Of a stretch of DNA of 64,000 nucleotides, positions 548-8,121 are shown piece after piece. Source of the DNA: an uncultured Chloroflexia bacterium (GTDB taxonomy: Bacteria; Chloroflexota; Anaerolineae; Caldilineales; Caldilineaceae). The DNA is taken from positions 26,956 through 90,955 of the forward strand of contig CAWGFG010000005.1 in the NCBI GenBank assembly GCA_963821815.1, in the 5' to 3' direction. The position numbers were made by a program, and so were the translations under genes. Positions within the stretch are counted from its first letter, which is position 1; every line of letters starts with the position of its first letter. The notes beneath the pieces are model-generated. The model searched no databases. It saw only the letters and a program-made list of their open reading frames with translations, and was not told the DNA's origin.

Positions 548-925
548 TCCCGCTATCTGTACAACGTTCGCCACGAGCCGGCGCAAACATGGGCTGCTGT
601 TACCATCCCGGTGATGACACTCTATGCCGAGCAGGACAATGTGGTGCTGCCAGAGGCCAACACAAAAGCGCTGGAAGCAGCCTTGGCACAAGCAGGTAAC
701 CCAGACGCAACCATCAACAAGATTTCAGGTGTGAAGCATTTGTTCTTGACGACAAGCAGCAGCGATCCAGTCGATTGGGCCGCACTACCCGGTGGTTTGC
801 CAACAACCCTACTCGAAACAATATCCACGTGGTTAGCGAGTCGTCGGGAGGATAGCCGGCACGACGGCTCTGGACCGCCGGCGGCGCTGATGCCGAGGAT
901 GCGCAAAACAGACGCTCCGTGCTAG
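548..925 (+). pseudogene. alpha/beta hydrolase (dienelactone-hydrolase-like), C-terminal fragment
   Basis: The frame is open only from 548. Sequence ...IPVMTLYAEQDNVVLPEANTKALEAALAQAGNPDATINKISGVKHLF matches the C-terminal D...H region of alpha/beta hydrolases. No N-terminal nucleophile region is present. Confidence 0.4.
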
Positions 926-963
926 AATCGGCGTATAAGGAGGGTTTACAAGGAGGACAATTA

Positions 964-1269
964 ATGACCGCTGCATCCGATCATCTGCACCTGCCGCACA
1001 AACAGATCGAACGGTTCTATGTGCGCCACAAAATACGCCGGTTGGCCCTATTCGGCTCGGTGCTTCGTGAAGACTTCGGGCCGGAGAGCGATGTCGATGT
1101 AGTGGTCGAGTTTGAGGCGGGGCATGTCCCCGGGATGGACTTCTTCGTCTTGCAGGAAGAACTGACATCCATTATTGGCCGCAACATCGATCTGCACACA
1201 CCGCCGTCCCTCAGCCGTTACTTCCGTGACCGTGTGCTGGCGGAGGCGGAAGTTCAGTATGAGCAATAG
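964..1269 (+). CDS. mntA: MNT-type nucleotidyltransferase antitoxin (HEPN/MNT module)
   Basis: Motif LFGSVLREDFGPESDVDVVVEF (GSxxR..SDxD). ATG at 964 lies 7 nt after AAGGAGG. Directly followed by the HEPN gene. Confidence 0.85.
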   Translation: MTAASDHLHLPHKQIERFYVRHKIRRLALFGSVLREDFGPESDVDVVVEFEAGHVPGMDFFVLQEELTSIIGRNIDLHTPPSLSRYFRDRVLAEAEVQYEQ

Positions 1270-1282
1270 CGATCTAATCTAG

Positions 1283-1618
1283 GTGCATCATCTGTTGGAC
1301 GCAGCCCCAAAATCAGTAGATTTCGTGTCCGGCGGCACGCGAGCCAATCTGGACGCAGACGAAATGCTGACACTCGCCCTTGTGCGCTTGCTTGAGATAA
1401 TTGGTGAAGCCTCCTGCAACATCAGCGCAGAAATCAGACTGGCGCATTCAGATATACCGTGGCGGCAGATGGCTGCTACTCGAAATCGACTGATTCACGG
1501 ATACTTCGACACGGATCTCGACATCGTGTGGTCGATTGTCGCTACCGATCTTCCTCTGCTGATTCCCAAGCTGCACGACATGACCGCCGAGTTGGAGAAA
1601 ACCGGGGGTAACGCTTAA
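1283..1618 (+). CDS. hepT: HEPN (DUF86) toxin
   Basis: LLEIIGEA and the Rx4H motif (RNRLIHGY). GTG start immediately follows an in-frame TAG, so the N-terminus is uncertain. Confidence 0.8.
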   Translation: MHHLLDAAPKSVDFVSGGTRANLDADEMLTLALVRLLEIIGEASCNISAEIRLAHSDIPWRQMAATRNRLIHGYFDTDLDIVWSIVATDLPLLIPKLHDMTAELEKTGGNA

Positions 1619-1792: not shown

Positions 1793-2553
1793 GTAGGGTA
1801 GGCGGCCAACGCACAGCATGACCTGTGTCTTCAACCGCCCCCCTCCGAACGGAGCGTGCACCTTTCGATGCACTCCGCTCTCCAGGAACCTCAACGAAAC
1901 GCTGGTCCATCATACCGTCCATAGGTAGTGTCCAAGTGACACGGGCAGCAAACGAAGATGGACTTGCGAGTTAACTATACTCAGATACTTGTCAGCTTGG
2001 AGCATTTCGCTTGACATGACGTTCTCTTCGTATGGGTTCCCTGTGACCCTTCGCCATGCTGTCACATTACATGGCAACTTGGGCTACTACGGTCACTCCG
2101 ATACCGTGCCGCTTTCGCGGGGTAGGCATTCCCGTGTTCCGTGGCATATACATGTTATCAGGCTGACTTAGGTTCTCCGTTTGTCCCCTTATCATTACTC
2201 ATGGTAACGAGTTCCAGGGCGGTCAACTACCGGCAAGCGTTTGTTAATCTTGACGGTCAACCCCAGACACAAGCAGTAGGTAGGTTCCTTGTGAGAGTCG
2301 CGTTCCTCCACTGGGGACTAGAGTTCAGGCGGTATAGCTTTAACCATATCAGCCGGGTCTTGCGGAGTCCTGTTGGCATTGCCTACCATGCCTCAACCCG
2401 CTTTTCCTCGATGCTATGTTCCCCACGCCCCTTTCGGGGAGCCTTTCGGGCTTTGGTCGTGGTTGCTCGGATGACCCTCTTGTAAATGTTGACGTACCAG
2501 AACCTCCTTGGGAGGTGATATATATGCCCGTGACACGGCGCACACAAACGCAC
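1793..2553 (-). ncRNA. Group II intron RNA, apparently ORF-less (no reverse transcriptase/maturase ORF)
   Basis: Minus strand 1880..1847 is GAGCGGAGUGCAUC-GAAA-GGUGCACGCUCCGUUC, a canonical 34-nt domain V (AGC triad, 2-nt bulge, GAAA loop). Domain VI follows with a bulged A 7 nt from a ...CCCUAC 3' end at 1793. GUGCG occurs at 2553 and 2543. Many GNRA hairpins; no ORF over 120 aa. Confidence 0.75.
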
Positions 2554-3060: not shown

Positions 3061-3732
3061 ATGCTTTCCTGTCTACTACCCGACCCAACTGTCATCGTGT
3101 TTAGCAGAGTTACACTAGACAAGAACAGTAAACGAATCGAGTGCGTGGCCGCGGTCAAAAAGGCCATAACAGCCTGCCCTGTTTGTAGACAACCAAGCGC
3201 TCTAGAGCACAGCAGATACCAGAGAAAGTTGGCAGTTCTTCCTCGGGCTTGTGTTCCGGTACAGATCACACTGCAAGTGTGACGCTTCACCTGTAAGAAC
3301 AGTAGATGTCAGCGGAAGATATTCTGCGAACGCATTCCAACTGTGGCTGCGCCTAGGGCGAGGCGCACCCAAGGGCTGACCAAAGCACAGCTGGCCGTAG
3401 CCCTTTCGGTTGGTGGCTCCGGTGGCGCCAGGCACTGTGTTGCTCTAGCCATGCATGCCGGTGTAGACCTGTTACTTGCATTTATTCGTACTATGCAGAC
3501 GCCTGAGTGCTCCATACCTCGGGTGTTGGGTGTCGATGATTGGGCAAAACGCAAAGGTCAAACCTACGGCACAATTCTGATAGACCCGGAGCAAGGAAGA
3601 GTTGTCGACATCCTCGCCGATAGAACGACAGAGAGTCTGGAGTCATGGCTAAAAGCCCATCCAGGCGCCGAGATTGTGAGTCGAGACCGATTTGGCGCCG
3701 CACAACCAGACTTAGTGCAGAGAATGTGCTAG
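3061..3732 (+). pseudogene. ISL3-family transposase, frameshifted and 3'-truncated
   Basis: N-terminal zinc-finger region (CPVCRQPS..HSRYQRKL) in one frame and PRVLGVDDWAKRKGQTYGTILIDPEQGRVVDIL in another. Aligns to the ISL3 gene at 48855..50504. Ends about 70 bp before uxuA. Confidence 0.8.
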
Positions 3733-3803: not shown

Positions 3804-4787
3804 TCAAGTCGCATAAACCTCCTGCATCAGCCGTCGAATGTAGCCGATGGCGTACGCTCTGCCAATGCGGCCTGTCGGGTCGCCGGGTATCTGCGGCGTG
3901 TGGTCCAACATGAACGGACCATTGAATCCGTTATCGCGGTAGATCTCCATGGTGCGTCGCATGTCGATGTCGCCCTCATCGATGAAGACCTCTTCAAAGT
4001 GGGGCAATTGGCCGCGCACATTGCGAAAATGGACCCAGGCGATCTTCTTTGCCGCGGCCATCTCGTCAATGAAGTCGTATACACCCTCACCCAACGCCTC
4101 TGTCATACAGCCTTGGCAGAAAAGCAGAGTGTGATTTTCGCTGGGCGCAATTGCGAGTATGCGACGAAACTGTTCCGGTGTGGAACAGATCTGGGCAACG
4201 CCCGCCAACGATTCCGGCAGCGGCGGATCGTCGGGATGTAGGGCCATGCACACGCCTGCTTTCTCGGCCACCGGGATTACGGCCTGCACAAAGCGTTCCA
4301 TGTGCGCCCACATCTCTGCCTCGCCCACTGCAGGCTGATACGGTTCGGGCCGATCGCGCATAAACTCATTGTAGTCAAAGGTGCTATAGCGTGCTCCGCC
4401 TCGTCCCATAGCCGAAGTGGTGCGAAAATTGCCCATGGGCTTGAAGTTCCATCCAAGATGCGGGATGCCGGCATTGCCCAGCGAGTCCAGCATCTTGCAC
4501 CAGGCGTCGATCTTCTCGTCTTTATCCTCTGCTCCCAGCGAAATCTCTCGCCAAGCCGCCATAAAAACGACGTTGAGCGCCATGTCGTGCGCCTCAACGC
4601 GCTCTCGTGCCTCTTCAAAAAAGAAGGTGCAGTCCTTGCCCTGCCGCAGATCTTCGCCTATGGAGGAACTGACGCCACTCACGCCAGTGCGCAACTCCAG
4701 ATGAATCATGTCTACGCCCAAAGAACGATAGAGAGCAAGCGTCTCGTCGTTAAAATCAGCCAGGTTCACCGCCTCTTGAATGTACAT
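3804..4787 (-). CDS. uxuA: D-mannonate dehydratase family protein
   Basis: 327-aa ORF with UxuA signatures: IPVAEKAGVCMALHPDDPP, VHFRN and a MLDH..P region. Confidence 0.75.
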   Translation of the reverse strand: MYIQEAVNLADFNDETLALYRSLGVDMIHLELRTGVSGVSSSIGEDLRQGKDCTFFFEEARERVEAHDMALNVVFMAAWREISLGAEDKDEKIDAWCKMLDSLGNAGIPHLGWNFKPMGNFRTTSAMGRGGARYSTFDYNEFMRDRPEPYQPAVGEAEMWAHMERFVQAVIPVAEKAGVCMALHPDDPPLPESLAGVAQICSTPEQFRRILAIAPSENHTLLFCQGCMTEALGEGVYDFIDEMAAAKKIAWVHFRNVRGQLPHFEEVFIDEGDIDMRRTMEIYRDNGFNGPFMLDHTPQIPGDPTGRIGRAYAIGYIRRLMQEVYAT

Positions 4788-7320: not shown

Positions 7321-8121
7321 TCAGCTTTGGGCTTGCCTCCGTATCTCAGCCATCTCCACCCCGCTAAGCTGGTCAAAATCATACGCTACTCGTACATTTT
7401 CCACGAGATGAGCTATCTCGGAGACGCCGATTATTGCTGTCGACACCGGATAGCGTAGGACCTATCGAAACAATGAGTCGATATTGACTCCTCGTTCGAT
7501 GAGGCGACTGTGAGCAACTACTTTCATGGCTATTACGCCAACGTCATTCTCTTGGGCTAGGCGGAAGAACCGTTCCACATCCTCGGGATCTTCCATGTCG
7601 TCACGGGCAGCATTGAGTAGGATTAGCACACAATCATACGGATAGTCTTCAAGTGCATCAGCCAGTCCATTGGATGAATGTGACGAAATACCGAAGTTCC
7701 GGGTCATTCCTTCTTCACGGAACCGCTCGAAAGCTTGCCTAGCGCACTTCTTCTGCTGTAGTTGCTCAAGTGGTCATCGCCTGCTGACCCTGTGGTGTTG
7801 ATACAGATCACGGGAGTCAGTCTGCAACCTGCGAAGACTCTGTTCGGCGAACGCCATGGCGCCGTCATCGGTGGAATCGTGACTCTTTGTCGCTACGAAA
7901 ACCTCTTCTCTTCGCTCCTTCATCACTGTGCCGATACTCAACTCGCTAGCGCCGATGCCGTAGCGGGCAGATGTGTCGATATCATTCACTCCCAGATCGA
8001 TCGCACGGTCGATAATCTCCACGGCTTCATCGTGCCGATCATTCCTTGACACAGTCTATAGGCCTTCCAGACCGAGTATGGATACCTGATGCCCAGTCTT
8101 TCCAAGAGGTCGTTGTGGCAT
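7321..8121 (-). pseudogene. aldo/keto reductase, disrupted
   Basis: MPQRPLGKTGHQVSILGLEGL* is followed by AIDLGVNDIDTSARYGIGASELSIG..FVATK..RRLQTDSRDLYQHH, then VGVIAMKV, then a different frame (PVSTAIIGVSEIAHLVENV). One nonsense codon and at least two frame changes. Confidence 0.8.

Follow-up and report, generated by a model that had tools for sequence, protein, structure and literature searches.

The locus and the extent of the intron

The 64-kb stretch of DNA analysed here, referred to as the window (contig CAWGFG010000005.1, positions 26,956 to 90,955), carries a complete group II intron of 751 nt on its minus strand, from nt 2543 to nt 1793, with all six RNA domains. The intron sits in non-coding DNA amid mobile-element debris. 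All intron features below lie on the minus strand and are numbered by window position, unless an intron position is given. An earlier note, made from the letters alone, had proposed an intron without an open reading frame (ORF) between 1793 and 2553, mainly on the strength of domains V and VI.

The Rfam model Intron_gpII (RF00029), which describes domains V and VI, matches nt 1882–1793 over its full length (model positions 1–77) with 63.9 bits (E=3e-10); its gathering score is 40 bits. This is the sole Rfam match at the gathering threshold within the window. The earlier note had read a canonical domain V at 1880–1847 and an unpaired A in domain VI, 7 nt from the 3′ end, and both readings are borne out by the sequence and the model. 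The bulged nucleotide is A1799, and the intron terminates with AC at 1794–1793. Checking with Rfam models, as the note had suggested, thus succeeded for domains V and VI but not for the rest. The generic models of domains I to IV gave one sub-threshold match, RF01998 at nt 2127–2046 (domains II and III), with 19.4 bits against the required 35. Since this result left the completeness of the intron undecided, relatives were sought.

A scan of contigs from one genome per species with a degenerate domain V pattern returned at least 117 loci. Among the matches listed, only L037, L064, L077 and L084 resemble the window beyond domains V and VI by nhmmer. The full-length ones are L084, from a metagenome-assembled genome of Myxococcaceae, and L037 and L064, from Ktedonobacter racemifer; all three are of ORF-less size and start with GUGCGCYGURUCACG. 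A metagenome scan with two family-specific motifs of domain I added 40 further loci, including the closest relative of the window intron, L142, an ORF-containing intron of 2.45 kb on the metagenomic contig Ga0224508_10057998.

A family hidden Markov model (HMM) was built from 31 intron 5′ halves, with both the window copy and L142 left out. It matches the window once, at nt 2543–1993 (E=5.3e-45), and model position 1 falls on nt 2543. Therefore, the 5′ splice site is the second of two GUGCG candidates, at 2553 and 2543, that the earlier note had listed. Both exist, but the end coordinate 2553 was wrong, as the homologues, the HMM and the exon pairings described below all give 2543. The GUGCG at 2553 is a coincidence in the 5′ exon. 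The consensus GUGCG at 2543–2539 is invariant in 35/35 aligned family members, and the basal helix of domain I follows directly. The note had allowed that domains I to IV might match no covariance model, or that only the tail of a deleted intron, domains V and VI, might be present. The family-specific HMM match and the covariation of domains I to III speak otherwise, and six domains are there.

Domain architecture and covariation

The consensus structure of domains I to III was derived with RNAalifold from an alignment of 35 sequences and contains 106 pairs. The domain map of the window intron comes from folding it under the constraint of this consensus. Compensatory changes are found in 78 of the 106 pairs. 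With the consensus partners, 96.2% of cells are paired, compared with 38–41% when the 3′ partners are slid. The covariation score is 0.556 versus about 0.09 in controls, and 0/500 shuffles reach the observed values.

Of the 106 consensus pairs, 91 form in the window. Among the 15 that do not, 13 are unformed in the ORF-containing L142 too and reflect subgroup-specific helices or misalignment. The two that remain are a pair in domain III, which resolves on inspection of the local helix, and G46·A63 in domain I, the sole private mismatch.

Domain I occupies nt 2538–2132 (intron positions 6–412) and contains 15 covarying helices of the consensus. Domain II (nt 2129–2101) is a short GAAA-capped hairpin made of helices 16–17, with compensatory changes in 7/9 pairs, and lies within the weak RF01998 match. 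Domain III (nt 2096–2043; GUAGUAGCC...GGCGAAGGGU) comprises helices 18–21. Domain IV (nt 2041–1884) is 158 nt long, is closed by the basal helix AGGGAACC/GGUUCCU, and contains two remnants of an intron-encoded protein (IEP) but no functional ORF. The catalytic domain V (nt 1880–1847; GAGCGGAGUGCAUCGAAAGGUGCACGCUCCGUUC) is 34 nt long, with the AGC triad, a bulge of two nucleotides (CG) and the loop sequence GAAA. Domain VI (nt 1844–1795), as aligned to RF00029, has its branch-point A at 1799, and its 3′ strand CCGCCU-A-CCCUAC ends at 1793. The GNRA-capped hairpins that the earlier note had remarked on are present, with GAAA in domains I, II and V and GCAA in domain I. Candidate nucleotides for the tertiary contacts ε-ε′, γ-γ′, ζ-ζ′, κ and λ are invariant across the family.

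Exon recognition and the target site

The intron is complementary to its 5′ exon at two sites. Intron-binding site 1 (IBS1), CGUUUGU, covers exon positions −7 to −1 (nt 2550–2544). It is the Watson-Crick complement of exon-binding site 1 (EBS1), ACAAACG, at nt 2244–2238; EBS1 and the preceding δ nucleotide A2245 (nt 2245–2238) lie in the 11-nt loop at the end of the Id3 hairpin, and the pairing reaches the G at 2551. IBS2, GUCGUG, covers exon positions −13 to −8 (nt 2556–2551) and pairs over 6 bp, one of them G·U, with EBS2, CGCGAC, in a hairpin loop of domain I (nt 2302–2297). The rejected GUGCG at 2553 spans the boundary of IBS2 and IBS1. With 7–8 bp for EBS1/IBS1 and 6 bp for EBS2/IBS2, 13 upstream nucleotides are covered. 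The earlier note would have given up the intron if no plausible EBS/IBS pairing could be found; both pairings are perfect at the 2543 site.

Comparison with relatives supports the assignment of EBS2. The IBS1 of L142 is identical to that of the window. At the second site L142 has the exon sequence GUUGCA and the loop CGCAAC, so that an exon C>U change is offset by an intron G>A change, and EBS2 and IBS2 covary between the two introns. In the relatives that target IS110, the homologous EBS2 loop UGCCCAC complements the exon sequence UGGGC.

Two other candidates were considered. CACGAC at intron positions 83–88 can pair with the window exon without a mismatch; its place within domain I is wrong, however, L142 does not conserve it, and intron positions 242–247 are preferred as EBS2. 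A second ACAAACG, at intron positions 360–366, was rejected as EBS1; it is within the family-conserved motif GGGGAYRARYGGA and is part of domain I helices.

In IIA-type introns the δ nucleotide, immediately 5′ of EBS1, pairs with the first nucleotide of the 3′ exon. This pairing is found in L084, L157, L118, L136 and L142; in L135 the two are unpaired. The 3′ exon of the window, AAGCAG..., resembles that of L142, UAAACAAG..., shifted by one base, as if a T at +1 had been lost.

The target across the insertion site can be written as CTCGTCGTGCGTTTGT|(A/T)AGCAG. Between the flanks of the window intron and those of L142, likeness is confined to the 16 nt before the 5′ splice site, 13 of which are identical, and perhaps a few bases of the 3′ exon. 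Retrohoming into a short cognate target would be expected to leave just such a short stretch in common.

The 11-mer of the EBS1 loop, UUAACAAACGC (nt 2247–2237), recurs in the 5′ exon on the minus strand at nt 2682–2672, about 130 nt upstream of the splice site, where it overlaps a terminator-like hairpin on the plus strand (nt 2662–2680). About 0.1 such recurrences are expected by chance. The exon copy could be a competitor for IBS1, or a coincidence.

Loss of the open reading frame

The window and L142 align by blastn in two blocks. The first, with 91% identity (535/590), begins 16 nt before the 5′ splice site and ends at intron position 574; the second, with 83% (142/171), extends almost to the 3′ end. 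At the window junction 1970|1969 the alignment skips from L142 nt 738 to nt 2432 with no window base lost. Thus 1693 nt (L142 nt 739–2431) are missing, and no microhomology is seen at the junction. Apart from this gap the window intron is collinear with L142, as an ORF-deleted (ΔORF) derivative would be.

The missing 1693 nt make up the body of the L142 IEP, a protein of about 600 residues with RVT_1, Intron_maturas2 and AI2M-like HNH domains by Pfam. Its best match in the PDB is LtrA of Lactococcus lactis, over the full length (E=1e-105). The IEP ORF of L142 (nt 691–2507) is itself frameshifted near nt 835, between reverse transcriptase (RT) motif 0 and the N-terminal region; this is either a sequencing error or the mark of a pseudogene.

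Both ends of the IEP are still recognisable in the window. The N-terminal remnant at nt 2017–1970 holds codons 1–16, MSSEMLQADKYLSIVN, and is identical at 44/48 nt to the L142 start, MTSEMLQADKYLSIIN; the start-codon region (DIVa) is presumed to lie within it. The C-terminal remnant at nt 1968–1891 holds the last 25 codons, RKSIFVCCPCHLDTTYGRYDGPAFR, and the stop codon, and corresponds to the end of the HNH domain. It shows 72% identity over 25 amino acids to L142 residues 591–615 by tblastn. Because 1693 equals 3n+1, the two remnants are in different frames.

A tblastn search with the L142 IEP matches nt 2017–1940 (the first ~25 residues) and nt 1968–1894 (the last 25), and finds no other RT or maturase in the 64-kb window. 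The earlier note was right that no frame contains an RT or maturase. It had dismissed the longest ORFs as arginine- and proline-rich junk; they do lack an RT, but those in domain IV can be recognised as N- and C-terminal remnants of the IEP, and the ORFs overlap both these remnants and the ribozyme. Domain IV of the window copy holds no intact RT/maturase ORF; with its IEP reduced to out-of-frame termini, the element cannot count as an autonomous retroelement. Judged on the IEP of the 91%-identical L142, the parent would be an LtrA-like mobile intron of the mitochondrial-like (ML)/IIA type.

An assembly artefact might give a similar picture, as might a partial intron in which domains V and VI stand beside unrelated sequence. 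The source looks metagenome-assembled, and assemblers can collapse repeats such as multi-copy introns. However, domains I to III are present and contiguous with domains V and VI, there is one clean breakpoint, and independent ORF-less relatives of 590–694 nt occur in the finished-quality genome of the K. racemifer isolate (L037, L064) as well as in many metagenomes. Either is therefore hardly credible.

State of the ribozyme and its probable fate

The identity to L142 varies along the intron. It amounts to 371/412 in domain I, 31/35 in domain II with its linker, 52/54 in domain III, 24/25 in the 5′ part of domain IV, 44/48 and 60/78 in the N- and C-terminal IEP remnants, 11/11 in the 3′ strand of domain IV, 34/34 in domain V, and 40/54 in domain VI. 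The differences in domain VI are compensatory, with GGG/CCC in place of GAA/UUC and CACAG/CUGUG in place of CCCAG/CUGGG, and those in domain II are compensatory as well. Domain V and the 3′ strand of domain IV together show 0/45 changes, versus 18/78 in the adjoining ORF remnant (Fisher p=1e-4).

Of 196 columns with at least 90% conservation in the wider family, 155 are matched by the window and 153 by L142, and nearly all deviations are common to both. Therefore the ORF-less copy is no more decayed than its ORF-containing relative, and the window ribozyme looks intact. These comparisons with L142 leave the deletion undated relative to the divergence of the two introns.

The reading that we favour, with a probability of roughly 0.6, is that a full-length group II intron with an LtrA-like parent lost its IEP by a single 1693-nt deletion in domain IV, and that the product is a non-autonomous ΔORF intron that splices with a maturase acting in trans. 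LtrA-type proteins bind their intron at the start-codon region of domain IV, and the folding of such introns in vivo requires the maturase. On transcription, A1799 would attack the 2544|2543 junction by the branching pathway. The freed 5′ exon would then attack the 3′ junction, and the exons would be ligated at 1793|1792. A related intron with an ORF, located elsewhere in the genome, would supply the maturase, whose likely binding site is the start-codon region still present in domain IV. With such a protein the element could also be mobilised by reverse splicing.

Several observations weigh against this reading. No source of an IEP lies within the 64-kb window. A single copy with the 1970|1969 junction is seen, and neither the window nor the loci returned by the genome and metagenome scans gave another; mobilisation in the ORF-less state is therefore only inferred. 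The domain I pair G46·A63 is broken relative to L142. The δ-δ′ position is A·A in the window (nt 2245 and 1792), compared with a pair in five relatives. The spliced exons encode nothing, so there is no evident host selection for splicing.

The earlier note had posed the choice as one between a trans-acting maturase and a fossil, which is the right framing. As a fossil, the full-length intron would have inserted, lost its ORF in situ, and would now be unspliced, immobile and decaying neutrally in junk DNA. The single copy and the lack of an RT in 64 kb agree with this, as do the non-coding location, with a toxin-antitoxin pair on one side and a broken ISL3 transposase on the other, the want of any host gene dependent on splicing, the two mismatches at δ-δ′ and in domain I, and the ORF remnants lying out of frame. 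Against it, the ribozyme has diverged from the consensus no further than that of the ORF-containing relative (155 versus 153 of 196), and 45/45 positions in domain V and the 3′ strand of domain IV agree with L142 beside an ORF remnant at 60/78 (p=1e-4). The compensatory differences in domains VI and II and the perfect EBS/IBS pairings also speak against it. A recent death of the intron may be compatible with the conservation data, which leave the deletion undated. We regard the fossil as the chief alternative, possible but, on balance, doubtful.

Comparison with known ORF-less introns

According to the part of PMC4424553 that cites Simon et al. 2008, bacterial group II introns that lack an ORF are rare and are almost always found in genomes that also house related introns encoding an IEP. 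The bacterial group II intron database lists them as a category (PMC3245105), and recent surveys extract them systematically (PMC8919778). The earlier note had called the copy unusual. It is uncommon, but it belongs to a recognised and catalogued category (PMC4424553, PMC2882425, PMC3245105).

The best-studied case, and the direct precedent, is TeI3 of Thermosynechococcus elongatus, with 17 ORF-less introns that share a deletion of about 1.5 kb in DIVb and keep pieces of both the N- and the C-terminal end of the ORF (Mohr et al. 2010, PMC2882425). Like the window intron, TeI3 is a natural ΔORF intron that lost about 1.5–1.7 kb in domain IV, with terminal remnants and a disrupted frame. In both, the ribozyme is intact with good EBS/IBS pairing at its site, and the nearest relatives are ORF-containing introns whose IEP is able to act in trans. 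TeI3 belongs to the IIB/CL type with an EcI5-like IEP, whereas the window intron goes back to an LtrA-like (ML/IIA-type) lineage. The 17 copies of TeI3 share one breakpoint, and their mobility has been shown by experiment; of the window intron one copy is seen, known from its sequence.

Another system for comparison is Ll.LtrB of Lactococcus lactis with its engineered ΔORF form, used with LtrA in trans (targetron; PMC3898094). The IEP of the parent lineage has the same set of RT, X and HNH domains, and LtrA is its closest solved homologue (E=1e-105). EBS1, EBS2 and a δ adjacent to EBS1 would likewise recognise the exons, although δ-δ′ is A·A in the window, and the start-codon region of domain IV is retained in the ΔORF form. 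In contrast to these constructs, the window deletion is natural, the nucleotide sequence is unrelated, and the host is Chloroflexota-like rather than a Firmicute.

C.te.I1 of Clostridium tetani is, like the window intron, a bacterial group II intron without an IEP (PMC4424553). No related IEP gene exists in its genome and its self-splicing is robust, whereas the window intron has clear IEP remnants, which show a recent retroelement origin, in a genome read over 64 kb. Splicing of the window intron in vivo by the ribozyme alone, as proposed for C.te.I1, would suit its intact catalytic core and has this one precedent, the single known independent ORF-less bacterial intron, which self-splices robustly in vitro (PMC4424553). 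Its origin argues against this: the window intron comes from an LtrA-like lineage, and, compared with its ORF-containing relative, it shows no compaction or extra stabilising elements. Members of that lineage such as Ll.LtrB need a maturase at physiological Mg2+. Autonomous splicing is thus very improbable.

The element is a ΔORF group II intron of an ordinary though uncommon sort. Every tested ribozyme feature is present; only an intact IEP is missing, the very lack by which the ORF-less category is defined, and by itself the element raises no new question. It differs from the best-studied ORF-less case in lineage (LtrA-like/IIA-type as against CL/IIB) and in host phylum. Natural ΔORF derivatives whose parent is known are each a data point on how often and in what manner the ORF is lost. 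The window intron adds an LtrA-like (IIA-type), Chloroflexota-like example for which the breakpoint is mapped exactly and an ORF-containing relative has been identified. Annotators should label the whole 751 nt, together with the short 'ORFs' that fall within it, a group II intron rather than intergenic DNA or hypothetical genes.

The intron family

Ten ORF-less relatives (L037, L064, L084, L118, L121, L123, L136, L139, L146 and L157) share the 5′ motif GUGCGCYGURUCACG, the motif CGCAAGACCCG and the covarying fold of domains I to III. Like the window intron they have lost the ORF from domain IV. Unlike it, they have other deletion end-points and domain IV lengths (590–694 nt in total, compared with 751) and other EBS sequences, and their targets are IS110-like and ISL3-like transposase genes. 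The likeness of the window to these relatives is seen by nhmmer only, with no blastn match outside domain V.

Among 23 distinct complete family members recovered, 11 are ORF-less (590–751 nt) and 12 ORF-containing (about 2.4 kb), a count that comes from an RNA-motif search unbiased toward RT genes and from a small sample with metagenome redundancy. The ORF-containing loci are L119, L122, L124, L126, L135, L137, L140, L141, L142, L143, L149 and L151. Because the ORF-less members are spread over several subclades and their domain IV lengths differ, ORF loss looks recurrent, which suggests that in this clade it is not a rare accident.

A further-reaching proposal is that the window element is a live mini-intron, spliced and mobilised by a driver IEP encoded elsewhere in the genome. 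It would belong to an LtrA-like clade of Chloroflexota and soil bacteria in which the ORF is lost repeatedly, so that copies with and without it are roughly equal in number. We offer it tentatively and consider it rather unlikely as a whole.

Surroundings of the intron and of its relatives

On the 3′-exon side, to the left, a gene for an MNT-type nucleotidyltransferase (NTP_transf_2; nt 919–1269, plus strand) is followed by that for a HepT RNase (nt 1283–1618, plus strand), directly beside the 3′ exon. The two genes (nt 919–1618) form a type VII toxin-antitoxin module. To the right lies the frameshifted N-terminal remnant of an ISL3 transposase (nt 3061–3732, plus strand), with a zinc ribbon and the start of the DDE domain. 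Beyond it are uxuA (nt 3804–4787, minus strand) and an aldose epimerase gene. After one 100% match, the nearest named relatives of the UxuA protein belong to Caldilineaceae and Litorilinea, with 68–71% identity, and the source is therefore probably a metagenome-assembled genome of Chloroflexota.

An interrupted host gene was considered and rejected, as no frame across the joined exons holds an ORF. Nothing in the flanks matches Pfam, and their only homology to other loci is that of the ISL3 remnant. Neither an empty target site nor another intron copy was found in the 64-kb window. A promoter and terminator scan around the intron gave nothing above chance, and tRNA and tandem-repeat scans of the window gave nothing relevant.

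The ISL3 remnant breaks off where uxuA begins. A homologous ISL3 gene in L132 contains a family intron. Several relatives lie inside transposase genes on the sense strand, namely L037 (nt 7380–8000) and L064 (nt 4041–4720) of K. racemifer, L084 (nt 1882–2575) and L132 (nt 1632). The insertion points are ...ASWAGM| in the IS110-like proteins and ...SNGQTEG| in the ISL3-like ones. The homing targets of the family thus seem to be conserved motifs within other mobile elements.

Two ORF-containing loci carry a HEARO RNA (RF02033, the IscB-associated ωRNA), L119 at nt 4130–4362 on the plus strand with 117 bits and L122 at nt 3493–3725 on the minus strand with 96 bits. Their introns are inserted 160–425 nt downstream of the HEARO RNA and are apparently inside IscB/IS200-605-type elements. 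In L125, domains V and VI of a group II intron (RF00029, 42 bits; nt 505–609) end 42 nt before the 5′ splice site of the family intron at nt 651 on the same strand, an arrangement of tandem or nested introns.

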